Shown piece by piece: positions 206 to 6,121 of a DNA stretch of 6,331 bases (its first letter is position 1; every line of letters begins with the position of its first letter). The translations under genes and the position numbers were made by a program. The notes below the pieces were generated by a model, which saw nothing but the letters and a program-made list of their open reading frames with translations, had not been told where the DNA came from and ran no database searches. Origin of the DNA: an uncultured archaeon (lineage in GTDB: Archaea > Asgardarchaeota > Jordiarchaeia > Jordiarchaeales > Jordiarchaeaceae); assembly GCA_964510585.1 (NCBI GenBank), contig CAZECW010000213.1:1-6331 (forward strand), given 5' to 3'.

Positions 206-641
206 ATGGGAGAACTTGAAGAACGTTTGGAGCATATGAGAGAGAAGTTGTGTAAAAGGCTTAGACCAGCTACTGAGAGAAAGAGGAGCGCGAAGTGTGG
301 TAGTTGACTTCACACTTTTCAACGCGGTGCTTCACATGTTGCAAACAAGCATCCAATCCTTTATAGATGCAGGTGCCCGGCTGCTCTCAGAATTGGGTGA
401 AAAACCGCCAAAAACATATGGAGAACTGCCTGAAAAACTGTTGGAAAAAGGAGTGCTGTCAAGTGGTGAAGGAATAATCGCCAGAAAGATAATTGGCTTG
501 AGAAACATTCTTGTCCACACATACCTAGACGTAGATACAAATATTGTTCTAAACATATTGGAGGAAGGTAAATATCACGACATACTCAAAATGGCACTAA
601 AAATTTTAAAATTTGCACACGATAAAAAGATAGACCCATAA
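206..641 (+). pseudogene. hepT: HepT/DUF86-family HEPN ribonuclease toxin, frameshifted near the 5' end (or a sequencing error)
   Basis: ORF 297-641 carries RNILVHTY (nt 501-524), the RX4HXY motif of HepT toxins, and a DUF86-like LHMLQTSIQSFID helix. That frame is open back to 240 (stop tga 237-239). ATG 206 in another frame gives MGELEERLEHMREK and stops at 303-305. Removing one base around 240-257 fuses them into about 144 aa, a typical DUF86 length. Confidence 0.8.
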
Positions 642-744: not shown

Positions 745-1287
745 GGAAGCGGTTAGAGATGCTGTGAGATGCCACTTTGGAGGGGGAAATGCCTCGAGTC
801 ATAAGGCTGCATATGGTTAAGGATGAGGTATTTAACACTATAATTTTGAGAACCGCAATTTTAAATTGAAAGTATTTTCCAAAATTTTTTGATTATTGGA
901 GGATTTATAGTATGAAGATTCCTAGGGATATAAATAGGAAATGCTAAAATTATATATGGTGTCTTTGCTTCATCCATAGAGGGTTTTTTCTTGTGATGTC
1001 TTGTGGGGATTTAGTGAAGGTTTTCGGCTTGGGAACCTGATAAGGTCTGAGTTTTTCGCCCCAACTCAAACCGTTGGTGGTGCACAAGATGTTAATGAGA
1101 ACAAAATAATGTCACTAGCAAATTATGAAACATAATGGCTGGAACCCACATTTCGCATTGTTTGTGAATTTTTTGGTATTTTTTTGTTTTTACCAGTTTC
1201 TTCTCCTGTTTCTTGCGGGGATTTGGAGATTTCCAAAAATTTTTTTGATAAAGTAAGATCAGATTCCCAGTATAGACTTAATTCCGC

Positions 1288-1306
1288 AAAAATAGAAAAA
1301 AATAAA
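1288..1306 (-). terminator. Possible archaeal oligo-T terminator after the peptidase gene
   Basis: The minus strand reads tttatttttttctattttt about 40 nt downstream of the stop at 1343. Confidence 0.3.
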
Positions 1307-1342
1307 CCAAGGGTGCGGGAAATGGGCTGTAATATTAATTAT

Positions 1343-1954
1343 TTATTTTTTACTAAGGTAATTTTTTGCTTGGTTGAAGTTCACTTCAAGTAATTCTGGT
1401 AGGTTTATTCCGGCTTTTTCAAATTTTTTTGTTGTTTTTCTGAGGGCTTCCTCGGATTCTGAGAAGTATAGGGTGAGTATGGTTTTTTCTCCCACGATTT
1501 TGGTTATGTCTTCCCAAATTTTGGTGTAGCTGAACTCGTCATATATGCTTTCTCCGATTTCTATGTTGAAATGGTTTGATACCAGTTTTTGAATGTAGCG
1601 GGTTAATCCTTCCCTAACCCATCTCTTGTAACGTGTCTTTATCCACGTTAGTGAATGTAGTAGTTCGTGTAGTATTGTGTCGTATTTTTGGATGCTTTTC
1701 TCTTTTATGACAATGATTTTTTCTCCGTGTATGGTTATGGCGTTTGTTATTTCTGCTAGTGTTTCTGCTGTTTGTTGAGAGTATCCCAACTTTTCATAGT
1801 AACTTTGGAAGTAGGGTAGGTCTGCTACTCTAAAATGGTACTTGGAGTGTTCCGAAATTTCGACGCTGACCCCCTTTTCCTGTAGAAAGGATTGTATGTA
1901 GTTAAGGCAGGTTTTTGCCGCCTGGTCGAGTCTACCATCACTCCAGATTTTCAC
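1343..1954 (-). CDS. Zinc metallopeptidase, gluzincin / peptidase MA-like (HExxH...WxxEG), 203 aa
   Basis: HELLH at aa 96-100 follows a beta-strand (IIVIK) and precedes RWVREG with the third-ligand Glu115 (HExxH-x14-E). The GTG start has GGTGGA upstream and overlaps the end of the HTH gene by 17 nt. No signal peptide is apparent. Confidence 0.8.
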   Translation of the reverse strand: MKIWSDGRLDQAAKTCLNYIQSFLQEKGVSVEISEHSKYHFRVADLPYFQSYYEKLGYSQQTAETLAEITNAITIHGEKIIVIKEKSIQKYDTILHELLHSLTWIKTRYKRWVREGLTRYIQKLVSNHFNIEIGESIYDEFSYTKIWEDITKIVGEKTILTLYFSESEEALRKTTKKFEKAGINLPELLEVNFNQAKNYLSKK

Positions 1955-2390
1955 CCAGTTCCACCGCTAACTCTGCTATATCTTTTCCGAATCTTTCCTT
2001 GAGCTGATGGGGGTACCACTTTATTAGGTTTTCCAGCGTTTTCCGAGCGGTTTCCAACTGAGCTGGTTTTTTGATTTCTAGTAGCTTTTCAATTTCACCT
2101 AGTCTTAGCAGTATGTCATGATAAATAAGTTCTTCTAAGAATTGAATCAGTTTCTCCCTCACTCCGGACTCGTTGTTAACACTGAAGCGGATTTCACCAG
2201 CAATGTCCCTCCTTACCACAAGTCCAGCTTCTACAAGCATTTTCAAGTGCTGGTATACAGTTGCTGCGTGGAGCCCAGTAATTTTTGAAAGCTGCCCCGT
2301 AGTTAAGCTTTCTCGGTGTCCAACTAAAGCTCTTAACAATTTTAATCTTCCCTCAGCAGAAAGGCTCTTCTCAACAACAGAAATCTCCAT
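1938..2390 (-). CDS. ArsR-like winged-HTH transcriptional regulator with a C-terminal helical extension, 150 aa
   Basis: RLKLLRAL...LTTGQLSKITGLHAATVYQHLKMLVEAGLVVRR...RFSV matches the ArsR/HTH_20 pattern. GGTG lies 6-7 nt before the ATG and a TATA box is upstream. Confidence 0.88.
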   Translation of the reverse strand: MEISVVEKSLSAEGRLKLLRALVGHRESLTTGQLSKITGLHAATVYQHLKMLVEAGLVVRRDIAGEIRFSVNNESGVREKLIQFLEELIYHDILLRLGEIEKLLEIKKPAQLETARKTLENLIKWYPHQLKERFGKDIAELAVELGENLE

Positions 2391-2407
2391 ATGTTGACAC
2401 CAAAAGA

Positions 2408-2431
2408 ATATATGCTAAAAACATATATAAA
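2408..2431 (-). promoter_or_regulatory. TATA box of the HTH-peptidase operon overlapped by a 7-7-7 inverted repeat
   Basis: TTTATATA lies at 2431-2424 on the minus strand, about 34-41 nt upstream of ATG 2390. The perfect inverted repeat is ATATATG (2408-2414), 7-nt spacer, CATATAT (2422-2428). Confidence 0.55.
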
Positions 2432-2892
2432 CATTCACCAAAACAAAACCTAAAGAACCACCATAAATTTAGATGCTGCAAACATCTCCCTTGTTTAAAA
2501 ACAAGCTAAAAAATTATTGTTCTCTTCTACGTTACATAATTCCCATTTTTTTAAATTTTTTATATACTCTTCTGAATTTTTTGCAATTTTGAATTGCTTT
2601 TTTGAAAAATTTTCAGAATCCAAATGAAATATACTAAAAAAGTAAAATTATGCAACCAGTAGTTCGGTTCTCTTGGCTTCAAGTTTCATTTTTGCGGATC
2701 CTTCTTCCATCGCGAGAGGGTGGAATTCGCAGAGGAGTTGACTTAAAGTTATGACCCAAACAGTAAAACAAAATTATTTTTGATAATTCCAGTGAAGGAA
2801 CAAGCATTTTTTGAGGGTGTTTCTGTTGTGATGGTTTGATTTTGGCATTTGTTTATGGGGGTTTTGGTGTTGCTCGTATGGTAATTTTGTGG

Positions 2893-4410
2893 TTAGTTTT
2901 GTCTTTCGTCTTTTTCGGTTGGGGGTAGTAGTTCTCTTTTTATGTCTTCTTTTGATATTAGCCAGATGAGTTCTTTTTCGTCTTCGTAGACGTAGATTAG
3001 GGGTATCATGTATTTTTCTGCGAGTTTGTAGTAGGCTATGGTTGCGGGCTTGTTTAGGGCTGTGCAGTCCATGACCAAAATGTGATTTCTTATTAGTTCT
3101 TTGAGAACTTGTTCAACCTTCTCTTCAACGGTTTTAACATTTGTTATTTCTTCGTCTCTTAAAAGGTGCCAGTTTATGTTGCTGGGTGTGATATTTTCCC
3201 ATTCGGGAATGGATTTGTATGTTTCAAAAACGGTGACTTTAATTTCATGTTTCTGGTCTTTTTCAGACTGGGAGTTTTCTTTTGGGAAGTTTTCTTTGGC
3301 TAGGAGTTTGAGTGCTGTTTCAGTTTCAGACTCGCTTCTTTGCTCTCTTCTTCCCAAGAGGCCGAGGTAGGCGTAGTCAACATTTGTGGAATCGAAAATG
3401 TAGCATAGGGGGCTTTTATGCGTTAATTCTACGGTGTGTCTTATGTGTTTCCCTTTTTCCTTTCTCGAATCTTTCTTTCTCATTGTATACATTAATCTTT
3501 CGCCGCGTGTAGAGGTTATGATTCCCTTCTCTTCGAAAATGTCTAGGATATGGCTTAGTGTGCTTTTCCCCATTTTTGCTTTTTCCGCAAGATCTCCAAT
3601 TCCGATGGGTTTACCGACGGTGGCTAGCTCTTTTAGGACTCGTCTCCAGTTCTCATTTTTGAAGGCGGTCTGATAAAATTTTATGTGTTTGGCATCTCCT
3701 TCTCGAGAGGTCTCTCCTTTTTTATTTGGTTTTTCGTCGGGTAGTAACTTTTTCTTTAAGTCTTCTTTTGATATTATCCAGTTTAGTTCTTTTTTGTCTT
3801 CGTAAACATAGATTAGGGGAACGCTGTGTTTTGTTGCGAGTTTATAGTAAGCTATGGTTGCGGGCTTTGTGAGGGAAGTGCAATCCATAACCAAAATGTA
3901 GTTTTTAGCGAGGTCTATGAGATGTGGCTCTACCTTTGATTGAATGGTTTCGATTCTTCTTATTTCCCTCTCTCCTATAAGTTTCCACTCAACTGGGATT
4001 GGGATATTCTCCCACTGGGTTTTACACTTTTCTGTGGTTAAAACTATGACCCTCTCAAAATTCAAGTTCTCCTTGGCCAGGAGTTTTAGGGCTGTTTCAG
4101 TTTCAGACTCGCTTCTTCCCTTCCTCTCACCTAGGAGACCGAGGTAGGCATAGGGAATTTTGGTGGAGTTGAAGATGTAGCATAGGGGGGTTTTGCGCTC
4201 CAGCCTAATTTTGTCCCCCTCAATGGAGATAACATTATTCATCCTGAGAATATTTATTTGGTGCCCAAAAGTGTTTTGGGATAATCCCACACTCCCTTTG
4301 AGTGGTAGGGATTGATTTTGTCCGCCTGCTTTTGCTAACTCCTCCAAGATTGCTCTCCTATTTCTTTGCTCCAGAGCAGACCTGTAATCTATAGCCTGCA
4401 CATTCTCCAT
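2893..4410 (-). CDS. Tandem-duplicated [wHTH + CARF-like Rossmann domain]x2 protein; putative nucleotide-sensing transcription regulator, 505 aa
   Basis: There are two homologous halves (aa about 1-224 and 250-496). Each has an N-terminal wHTH (GLSQNTFGHQINILRMNNVI; IGDLAEKAKMGKSTLSHILDIFEEKGII). Each then has a Rossmann-like domain with YLGLLG, a second hydrophobic strand (VIVLTT in unit 1), ILVMDCTxLxKPATIAYYKLA and PLIYVYE, resembling the CARF DxT/SxGxK/R helix motif and final strand. AAGGGG precedes the ATG. The CDS is certain; the CARF call is from motif recognition only. Confidence 0.75.
   Translation of the reverse strand: MENVQAIDYRSALEQRNRRAILEELAKAGGQNQSLPLKGSVGLSQNTFGHQINILRMNNVISIEGDKIRLERKTPLCYIFNSTKIPYAYLGLLGERKGRSESETETALKLLAKENLNFERVIVLTTEKCKTQWENIPIPVEWKLIGEREIRRIETIQSKVEPHLIDLAKNYILVMDCTSLTKPATIAYYKLATKHSVPLIYVYEDKKELNWIISKEDLKKKLLPDEKPNKKGETSREGDAKHIKFYQTAFKNENWRRVLKELATVGKPIGIGDLAEKAKMGKSTLSHILDIFEEKGIITSTRGERLMYTMRKKDSRKEKGKHIRHTVELTHKSPLCYIFDSTNVDYAYLGLLGRREQRSESETETALKLLAKENFPKENSQSEKDQKHEIKVTVFETYKSIPEWENITPSNINWHLLRDEEITNVKTVEEKVEQVLKELIRNHILVMDCTALNKPATIAYYKLAEKYMIPLIYVYEDEKELIWLISKEDIKRELLPPTEKDERQN
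2923..4410 (-). repeat. Intragenic direct duplication (two units offset by 777-816 nt)
   Basis: Identical DNA blocks: 27 nt gctgtttcagtttcagactcgcttctt at 3314-3340 and 4091-4117; 17 nt gctatggttgcgggctt at 3035-3051 and 3851-3867; 17 nt gtcttcttttgatatta at 2944-2960 and 3760-3776. Confidence 0.95.
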
Positions 4411-4440
4411 CCCCTTAAAATAGTTTGATTAAACCTCCAC

Positions 4441-4451
4441 ACCATAAAAAC
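4441..4451 (-). promoter_or_regulatory. Possible TATA-like promoter element of the wHTH-CARF gene
   Basis: The minus strand reads aagTTTTTATGgtg about 30-40 nt upstream of ATG 4410; a non-canonical TATA box. Confidence 0.3.
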
Positions 4452-4669
4452 TTAGGTTGAGAAAGTGAAGGTTGCCTGTAGCCTTTTACTAAAACTATGG
4501 GCATAAGTCTTCTACCCCATCCATAAAAATATTTCAGCAGGCATATATTTGTGTTATGTGAGAAACTTGCGCTTTTTAACCCATTCCGCCCTTTGCAGAG
4601 ATGTAAAAAGTTTTTGGAGTCTTCTTTACCAACATGGGATTGAAATTTTAGTGCTTTTGGTTCATTAGT

Positions 4670-5527
4670 TTAGAGCTGTTTAATTGCATCTTTGAGGTCT
4701 TCTAGTACTTGTTCCAGCGTTTTGTTTTTTAGAGTTTGGAAGCCTCCTACTGTTTTGTGTCCTCCTGAGCTGTAGCCTTTGTTTCTAAGGTGTTGGTAAA
4801 TTTTTGTGAGGTCCAAGTTTCTCTTTGTGGCTATGGTTCCACCCTTCACCCCCTTTCCCTCCATTCCTACGGAGATGACTATGGGATTTTTTTCTTCCAG
4901 GGTGAGCATGGCCTCTTTGGAGGCTCCTCTCTCCCAGCGGTCACCAAAATTGAACGTGAAGTATACTGCTTCCGTTGTTAATTTTTCGCTTCTATCCAGG
5001 AGTTCCTTCGTTTTCTCCTCTATTTTTTGGTACTCTGATGATACCTTTTCCGCCCATTCCCGGAGTTCTTTCCAGTTTCCTTTTCTAACCATTTCTGAAA
5101 CCCGTTGACGGGGGAATCCTTGGGGGTCTATGCGGTAGGCTCTCCATATTATGTTGCCCAGTTTGGAGTTAAGTGTGGCGGTGTCTACTTCCTCCACTGC
5201 AGTTCTCCATTCTTCTGGGAATTCTAGTTTAAAGTGGTCTGCAATGAGTGAGGAGACCGCACGGTAATCTGGCTTGAGAATCCACTCGTTTCCCATTTCA
5301 TCCATGCCTTGTCGAGTCTCGGTCCCGTGATGATCAATTATGAGTGAATTACGCATAGCTTTTACGCGGGTTGGTGTGATTTCTATACAGGCTGCGTTTT
5401 CAATGTTTAAATCCGCAAGTTCAAGTGGGAATTCTAGGGGAACACCGAAAACGCGTGAAAGAAGGCCGGCTCCCACCACTCCGTCCCAGTCTCCATGGGC
5501 TACAATTCTCAATATTTCAGGCTTCAT
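4670..5527 (-). CDS. DHH/DHHA1-family phosphoesterase (NrnA/Pde2-like), about 285 aa
   Basis: Motif I is RIVAHGDWDG, the signature motif is LIIDHHG, a later acidic motif is EEVDT, and the C-terminal DHHA1 motif is SSGGHKTVGGF. The likely start is ATG 5527 (MKPEILRIVAHGD), which puts motif I near the N-terminus and has GAGGG upstream. The ORF track's extension to 5641 is low-complexity. Confidence 0.9.
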   Translation of the reverse strand: MKPEILRIVAHGDWDGVVGAGLLSRVFGVPLEFPLELADLNIENAACIEITPTRVKAMRNSLIIDHHGTETRQGMDEMGNEWILKPDYRAVSSLIADHFKLEFPEEWRTAVEEVDTATLNSKLGNIIWRAYRIDPQGFPRQRVSEMVRKGNWKELREWAEKVSSEYQKIEEKTKELLDRSEKLTTEAVYFTFNFGDRWERGASKEAMLTLEEKNPIVISVGMEGKGVKGGTIATKRNLDLTKIYQHLRNKGYSSGGHKTVGGFQTLKNKTLEQVLEDLKDAIKQL

Positions 5528-5852
5528 ATCTTTGTATCCCTCTTTTTGAAGTTTCTGTTTCATTTCTGGTTGATAGTGGCGATTACCTTTAGCCATAAGC
5601 TTTTGTATCTTTTTGTTGTGGTTGGTGTGTTTTTTGGGCATTGCGCCGAAATTTTTATGTGGAAAGTTTTATTTTTTGCTGTTTTCTGCTTTTGGTTTGT
5701 AAGGGTTTGGAAAGTTTTCTTTTTTTGTGGTTTGTAGTTTCTATCTGGCACAAGTAGTTGTGCTATATTAATTTTGTTGGAATAATGTTCAACACATATT
5801 AAAATATATTCTATTTCTGCGTGGTGTTTTTGGAGTACGCTGAAATTCTGAT

Positions 5853-5865: not shown

Positions 5866-6121
5866 GAGAAAACTCAAGTATTTCCCAACCCTAAAAATAT
5901 TTGGACCCTTAAGGTCTCGATTGTTCCGATGAGCCTGCTGTCGAGGGGCGAATGGGGCTTATCCAAAATAGAACAGCCTTAAAGTGTAATTAAAGTTTGG
6001 AGGTGCAAACTTATGTTTTTGGAGTTTGGGATTGCTTCAAAAATGGGGTTTTGGATGATACCCACTCACTTCCTTGGTGTCTGCCCTCATAATCCTAGGG
6101 TGAAGAGGAGGTGTTGAAAAG

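Follow-up and report, generated by a model that had tools for sequence, protein, structure and literature searches.

A tandem wHTH-CARF protein of an Asgard archaeon, a candidate cyclic-oligoadenylate-sensing single-chain transcription regulator

A gene of an uncultured Asgard archaeon encodes, in one open frame, two consecutive units that are each composed of a winged-helix domain (wHTH) followed by a CARF domain, and we consider it rather probable that its product is a cyclic-oligoadenylate (cOA)-sensing, single-chain pseudo-dimeric transcription regulator of a wHTH-first, CARF_m5-like family. The stretch of DNA that was analysed, hereafter the window, is the entire 6,331-nt contig C213 of a 3.78 Mb MAG (96% complete), the close relatives of the source being named Candidatus Freyarchaeota, an Asgard lineage; the window sequence recurs in hot-spring metagenomes of several studies.

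Architecture and fold of the tandem protein

A first-pass annotation made from the DNA letters had read the order HTH1-CARF1-HTH2-CARF2 in a single open frame, a reading that is borne out by the open reading frame itself, the alignment of one half against the other, the profiles and the fold matches (Table 1). BLASTP of residues 1-235 against residues 236-505 gave 45% identity (E 1e-68), and at the DNA level the duplication shows up as repeats of 249 nt (76%) and 131 nt (80%), with spacings of 816 and 777 nt. The linker between the units is short to moderate and disordered in the full-length AF2 model, in which the low-confidence stretch (residues 204-248) is wider than the linker. Contigs from other hot-spring runs cover the linker (X1 record 2, 1286-4182, and X2 record 12, 3186-4817) or the entire gene (X4 record 29, about 97% identity, all listed indels of run X4 being intergenic), and the fused frame is therefore not an assembly slip; tandem homologues were moreover obtained in independent assemblies of JGI, NCBI, ENA and Logan.

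Table 1. Position of the tandem gene, its parts and the neighbouring DHH/DHHA1 gene in the window
Feature	Position	Strand	Basis or remark
Whole ORF, wHTH1-CARF1-linker-wHTH2-CARF2	2893..4410	(-)	505 aa plus stop, no interruption
wHTH1, residues 1-72, ArsR/MarR-type winged helix	4195..4410	(-)	model fold matches; NCBIfam HTH_metalloreg
Connector KTPLCYIF (conserved) and CARF1, residues 73-226	3733..4194	(-)	fold matches; PADLOC CARF_m5/CARF4; invariant columns
Inter-unit linker, Lys/Glu-rich, about residues 227-239	3694..3732	(-)	pLDDT <50; unaligned between halves
wHTH2, residues 240-331, basic wing insertion of ~20 residues	3418..3693	(-)	Pfam and NCBIfam
Connector and CARF2, residues 332-498	2917..3417	(-)	half-against-half alignment; motifs; CARF4 profile match at residues 408-490
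DHH/DHHA1 phosphoesterase	4670-5641	(-)	DHH motifs intact

One contig of the hot-spring run X3 (1,040 nt, depth 8.8) joins position 3310 of the window to position 4088 and omits 777 nt, which is 259 codons and in frame; its predicted product is a 246-aa single-unit wHTH1-CARF chimera. The joint lies directly past the longest DNA stretch common to both CARF halves (RSESETET), and the skipped region (3310-4088) is partly covered by other X3 contigs at lower depth. The joint could stem from true recombination of the repeats or from an artefact of de Bruijn assembly; a possibility raised by this one contig is that, within populations, the tandem reverts to a single unit when its CARF repeats recombine.

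An AF2 model of residues 1-226, built on an alignment of 53 sequences, had a pLDDT of 97.1 and a pTM of 0.92. Residues 84-218 of this model adopt a CARF fold, with Z-scores of 10.7-13.9 and rmsd of 2.2-2.8 to known CARF domains: VC1899 (13.9), Can2 (13.6), Cdn1 (12.9), Card1 (12.6) and Csm6 (12.6), followed by the lower matches Cad1 (11.7), Cam1 (11.6), Can1 (11.3) and Csa3 (10.7). Foldseek gave a probability of 1.00 for the unit model against Csm6, Card1, Cdn1, Cam1 and Can2, and the CARF call of the first-pass annotation is thus confirmed by the fold, by Foldseek and by the PADLOC profiles described below. Residues 1-76 of the model resemble wHTH proteins of the ArsR/SmtB and MarR families (CzrA, Rv0081, ArsR and MarR, Z of 9-10). 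In profile searches wHTH1 was matched by NCBIfam HTH_metalloreg in two stretches, and wHTH2 by Pfam MarR, HTH_5 and HTH_24 at residues 256-303 and by NCBIfam ArsR/SmtB at residues 249-313; the winged helices are bona fide ArsR/MarR types, above the Pfam cut-offs. No CARF was found in the tandem protein by Pfam or NCBIfam, the HTHs being the sole matches, and because these two collections recognise only the HTHs, the CARF assignment is carried by the PADLOC profiles and the structure. A nuclease domain (PD-(D/E)xK or HEPN) was not found in the protein by Pfam, NCBIfam or PADLOC, and a profile of the CARF part gave no meaningful match among PDB sequences.

The PADLOC profile PDLC01987 (CARF_m5--CARF), which carries no curated cut-off and whose 195 positions take in both HTH and CARF, matches the whole protein in two stretches (E 5.8e-19), the N half over profile positions 10-195 of 195 (E 2.8e-10) and 52 of the 53 family members (best E 1.3e-30). 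The PADLOC CARF4 profile (CARF-PD-D/ExK) matches the tandem protein with an E of 1.8e-14 and 50 of the 53 members with E down to 1e-13. The Csa3 profile TIGR01884 scored 16.4 bits against a cut-off of 60.2, over the HTH only. A profile of the non-HTH part was also searched against 1.84 billion representative proteins and yielded 89 clusters, most of them proteins of 210-250 aa with the CARF domain at the C-terminus; in the weak tail of this search were Can2/Card1-like proteins, whose TGGTKP motif aligns to DCTSLTKP. AlphaFold DB also contains full-length single units, whose TM over the whole unit is 0.95, 0.85 and 0.81 and whose annotation goes no further than ArsR/MarR regulator. Single-unit clusters of the ESM Atlas have about 150 members, and the phyla met most often in them are Bathyarchaeota and Thorarchaeota. 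Each half of the tandem protein is a wHTH-first CARF unit of the catalogued CARF_m5 family.

PDLC01987 represents CARF_m5, a minor CARF clade in the classification of Makarova et al. 2020; we know of no experimental work on this family. Like the tandem protein, CARF_m5 has an N-terminal wHTH and then the CARF, and the tandem protein matches its profile twice, but the catalogued members and nearly all relatives are single units, whereas here two units are fused in frame. An HTH-first, internally duplicated CARF regulator had been unfamiliar to the first-pass annotation. The tandem fusion is indeed unusual, but the novelty of the HTH-first order was overstated, because CARF_m5 is already catalogued and single units are common in AlphaFold DB and the ESM Atlas. 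The claim that the domain order is reversed with respect to Csa3 holds. Csa3 (PDB 6wxq, with cA4 bound at the CARF dimer axis) likewise combines CARF and wHTH, its CARF matching with an rmsd of 2.8 over 128 residues at the Z given above and its HTH profiles resembling the HTH of the tandem protein, but its CARF is N-terminal and its wHTH C-terminal, and it is a homodimer of identical chains and HTHs, whereas the tandem protein has two diverged HTHs in one chain. Can1 (PDB 6sce), a single-chain two-CARF nuclease that forms an intramolecular pseudo-dimer for cA4, also has two CARFs per polypeptide, but carries nuclease and nuclease-like effector domains where the tandem protein has two wHTHs. 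The closest CARF domains, both by structure (Z of 12.4-13.9) and by profile, are those of the CARF4 group (Can2, Card1, VC1899 and Cdn1), which have in common with the tandem protein the T-x-x-T-K-P loop after strand 4 but, unlike it, carry C-terminal PD-(D/E)xK nucleases without an N-terminal wHTH.

Inspection of the two halves revealed that the CARF domains are 64% identical in protein sequence and that all family-invariant CARF residues are kept in both. The strand-1 motif GLLGxRxxRSESET is present in CARF1 and in CARF2, and the strand-4 motif reads DCTSLTKPAT in CARF1 and DCTALNKPAT in CARF2; GLLGxR..E/T (strand 1) and D-C-T-x-x-T-K-P (strand 4) are (near-)invariant, in the two halves as well as throughout the family. 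In the loop after strand 1 (RSESETET), conserved Ser, Thr, Arg and Glu are abundant, and CARF2 has a 12-residue insertion after helix 1. The two winged helices, which had been described as different in the first-pass annotation, do differ, with 24-26% identity to each other versus 59% (HTH1) and 43% (HTH2) to their counterparts in the orthologue P0006. As judged from these alignments, the pattern appears to be that of a conserved, symmetric sensor pair with two differentiated DNA-binding heads. To call the sensor blocks identical at the DNA level would be an overstatement, the CARF halves having 73% DNA identity and a longest identical run of 8 codons (about 27 nt). Each unit also carries two cysteines (residues 77/177 and 336/449 of P0001, in KTPLC and DCT) that are invariant in the close subfamily.

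Distribution and genomic context of the family

Tandems or tandem fragments account for 6 of the 89 representative clusters (P0006, P0007, P0010, P0011, P0029 and P0013). In a survey of 400 genomes of the phylum the domain was present in 32, as a tandem only in the genome of the window and in its congener G121, the other congeners having one or two single-unit genes each. In a tree that included the halves of the window protein, P0006 and P0007, the N halves of the different species form one group and the C halves another (support 100/99 and 100/98), and therefore the fusion is older than these species; the group is placed among single-unit genes of the same genus. In the tandems P0010, P0011, P0029 and P0013, the N halves and the C halves cluster separately in another part of the tree, for which a second, independent fusion is the simplest explanation, the deeper branches of the tree being moderately supported only. 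Under the asymmetric-receptor proposal given below, two separate tandem groups would point to selection for single-chain heterodimers of that kind. We found no paper on a (wHTH-CARF)x2 protein, nor on CARF_m5, HTH-CARF or an Asgard CARF with wHTH, and the 2014 survey of CARF domains refers to 'fusion of two CARF domains' in general terms only (PMC4012209). The in-frame tandem with diverged HTHs is rare and apparently undescribed. The only intact family members in the genome of the window are the two tandem halves; a third wHTH-CARF copy (contig C156 of G000, 1928-2500, minus strand, E 4.7e-16) contains one TAG and one TAA and is probably a pseudogene.

The genomic context was counted for the five relatives with at least 9 kb of surrounding sequence, and type III cas or Csx1/Csm6 genes adjoin all five. 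P0007 is near two Csm6/Csx1-like genes, on a contig that also has the single-unit gene P0008, Csx1_CARF genes are found near P0010 and P0011, P0012 adjoins Cas10-Cmr2, a RAMP gene and Cas_NE0113, and P0016 is divergent from a complete cmr1-6 and csx3 operon. In G117, a complete genome of the same genus, there are two single-unit genes, at 48.5 kb and 2,694 kb, and each of them has one of the two Cas10 genes at a distance of 3-5 kb on the opposite strand. Ordinary CARF_m5-like members are usually transcribed divergently from the neighbouring type III, Csx1 or Csm6 genes. In the genome of the window, contigs C108 and C147 have Cas10-like genes, and C210 has a Csm6/Csx1-like gene. No cas gene is present on the 6.3 kb contig itself, and a repeat search detected no CRISPR-like array in the window; because of the former, the CRISPR linkage of this copy rests on its relatives.

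The DHH/DHHA1 gene lies 259 nt upstream of the tandem gene on the same strand, and its start is probably downstream of the annotated ATG, because the homologues of congeners align only from residue 28-38 or later. The order of these two genes is repeated in a 94%-identical strain only. The DHH/DHHA1 gene itself is conserved in the genus, but the complete sister genome has its orthologue (about 70% identity) at 467 kb, far from the wHTH-CARF genes, and the neighbours of the 60%-identical tandem orthologue P0006 differ; a conserved functional partnership of the phosphoesterase with the tandem protein, such as the degradation of cOA products, was rejected on these grounds. Within the window there is also a 19-nt motif, AAATATTTTTATGGATGGG (minus strand, 4516-4534), about 105 nt upstream of the tandem gene, with a second, 89% identical copy at 5884-5902 upstream of the DHH region. 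This motif could be a promoter or operator element; the signal from the intergenic repeats of the window was too weak for a site to be called.

Other parts of the window were characterised as well. At the start of the contig, positions 82-141 are a dispersed repeat, of which the genome has at least 40 near-identical copies, most of them 80-140 nt from contig ends. The metagenome depth of this segment is very high, and a second high-depth patch lies at about 1061-1484. A CRISPR repeat was rejected for 82-141 in view of the dispersed copies at contig ends, and the segment is probably the terminal part of a high-copy mobile element at which the assembly breaks. An ORF at 297-641 (+) encodes a HepT-like (HEPN) ribonuclease toxin (Pfam E 9.5e-22), no MNT antitoxin ORF being recognisable upstream of it within the window; the P0007 locus also has an MNT/HEPN pair. 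An overlapping pair at 1343-2390 (-) consists of a 150-aa ArsR-type wHTH protein (1938-2390) and a 203-aa HExxH protein (ILHELLH; 1343-1954) and resembles ImmR/ImmA repressor-protease pairs, for which a weak lead to Peptidase_M78 in the Atlas is the sole support; in the 94%-identical strain, too, the tandem gene is followed by a similar pair, whose second gene is called at 113 aa. The window contained no RNA family (Rfam) and no tRNA (ARAGORN).

CARF pairing and proposed mode of action

In light of the two wHTH-CARF units in one protein, a built-in dimer is probable, and we modelled the pairing by folding the halves as two chains, each with its family alignment, in three runs and three controls. 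The CARF1-CARF2 pair reached an ipSAE of 0.74 (0.74, 0.74 and 0.76 in the runs) and the best of the three controls 0.00, a score that holds alike for pairing within or between chains and that may reflect likeness more than the behaviour of this protein, because CARF homodimers are well represented among solved structures. In the benchmark of the ipSAE mark, it was reached by 58 of 80 complexes of solved structure and by 2 of 110 mismatched pairs. At least 97% of the contacts agreed between runs and the partner pLDDT was at least 80. The predicted interface is two-fold symmetric, with Cys177/Thr178, helix 182-193, strands 201-212 and residues 151-154 facing their CARF2 equivalents, and in the models it corresponds to the canonical two-fold CARF dimer interface, with the strand-4 loops on the axis. 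The full-length AF2 model from an alignment of 4 sequences was poor (pLDDT of 58.9), and the full-length ESM Atlas model had a pTM of 0.81, which is consistent with one compact arrangement. The packing of CARF1 on CARF2 that the first-pass annotation had envisaged is therefore supported by the modelling as a pairing, the score being blind to whether it occurs within one chain or between two.

The type III linkage of the relatives makes a cOA-responsive regulator of defence genes the most likely role. The CARF domains of Can2, Card1 and Cdn1 bind cA4 or cA3, and because these are the nearest CARF domains, cA4 is our best guess for the ligand by analogy. In the proposed mechanism, the type III Cas10 enzymes of the organism would make cyclic oligoadenylate upon infection, most likely cA4, and the ligand would sit between the CARF1 and CARF2 domains of one chain, in a pocket that lies on their pseudo-two-fold axis. 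The binding signal would pass via the conserved KTPLCYIF connectors and re-position the two non-identical winged helices, so that occupancy of a non-palindromic operator, and with it the transcription of defence genes, would change.

The pairing model bears on an arrangement in which CARF domains of different chains associate, either in a domain-swapped dimer or in a chain of tandems, so that the assembly would have four CARFs and four HTHs and would offer two ligand sites. The predicted interface is the generic CARF two-fold and would be equally usable between chains, and the linker is short to moderate and disordered; we nevertheless regard inter-chain pairing as unlikely, since the fusion, with the reservation already made for the deeper branches, apparently arose twice and is the expected route to a fixed 1:1 intramolecular pair, as in Can1, and since the Atlas model is consistent with a single compact arrangement. 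The protein might also act mainly as a ring nuclease. Some CARF-wHTH proteins, namely the Crn1 family (Sso2081, Sso1393 and Sis0811), are ring nucleases and not regulators, and a cOA-degrading off-switch of this kind, with winged helices of structural or secondary importance, or else a regulator that limits itself by cleaving the ligand it binds, would agree with the Crn1-type proteins among the fold matches (Sso2081 with Z 10.8, Sso1393 with Z 11.5, Sis0811 and Sis0455), which are CARFs with wHTH-like domains, and with the conserved Ser, Thr, Arg and Glu of the strand-1 loop. The likeness to Crn1 is one of fold only, however, the best fold and profile matches being the CARF4 group and CARF_m5, and the HTHs are genuine ArsR/MarR domains that are each conserved among orthologues, which makes a ring nuclease improbable.

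A sensor outside CRISPR signalling, which would recognise a nucleotide or RNA ends as the divergent CARF of RtcR does and regulate local genes such as DHH/DHHA1, appears to us very unlikely. It would account for a contig without a cas gene, for the adjacent co-oriented phosphoesterase whose position is kept in the 94%-identical strain, and for RtcR-like clusters among the weak structure neighbours in the Atlas, but in the sister genome the DHH orthologue is far away from the two wHTH-CARF genes (at 48 kb and at 2,694 kb), P0006 has other neighbours, and every relative with adequate context is linked to type III genes.

Within the favoured reading of a cOA-sensing single-chain regulator, a more specific and rather doubtful proposal is that the protein is an obligate asymmetric receptor, in which one symmetric ligand would be read by two non-identical CARF halves and relayed to two winged helices on a non-palindromic operator. 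If true, this would permit control that is specific to orientation, for instance over a single arm of a divergent cas promoter. An alternative to orientation control is that one protein serves the promoters of both type III loci of the genome; in the sister genome, each of the two type III loci has its own single-unit regulator.

To our knowledge, no output of type III CRISPR signalling is less well understood than the CARF transcription factors, of which only Csa3, a symmetric homodimer, has been studied in depth. The tandem protein leaves the general picture of cOA signalling unchanged, but as a natural single chain with distinguishable halves it would allow one CARF or one HTH to be mutated at a time, and such one-half mutants would reveal how a symmetric cyclic ligand is read and relayed to the DNA-binding domains; it would also offer a compact monomeric cOA-responsive switch. 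The wHTH-first CARF family, until now a catalogue entry only, is placed beside type III loci in the examined Asgard (Freyarchaeota) relatives, and single wHTH-CARF units are present in other archaeal phyla too.
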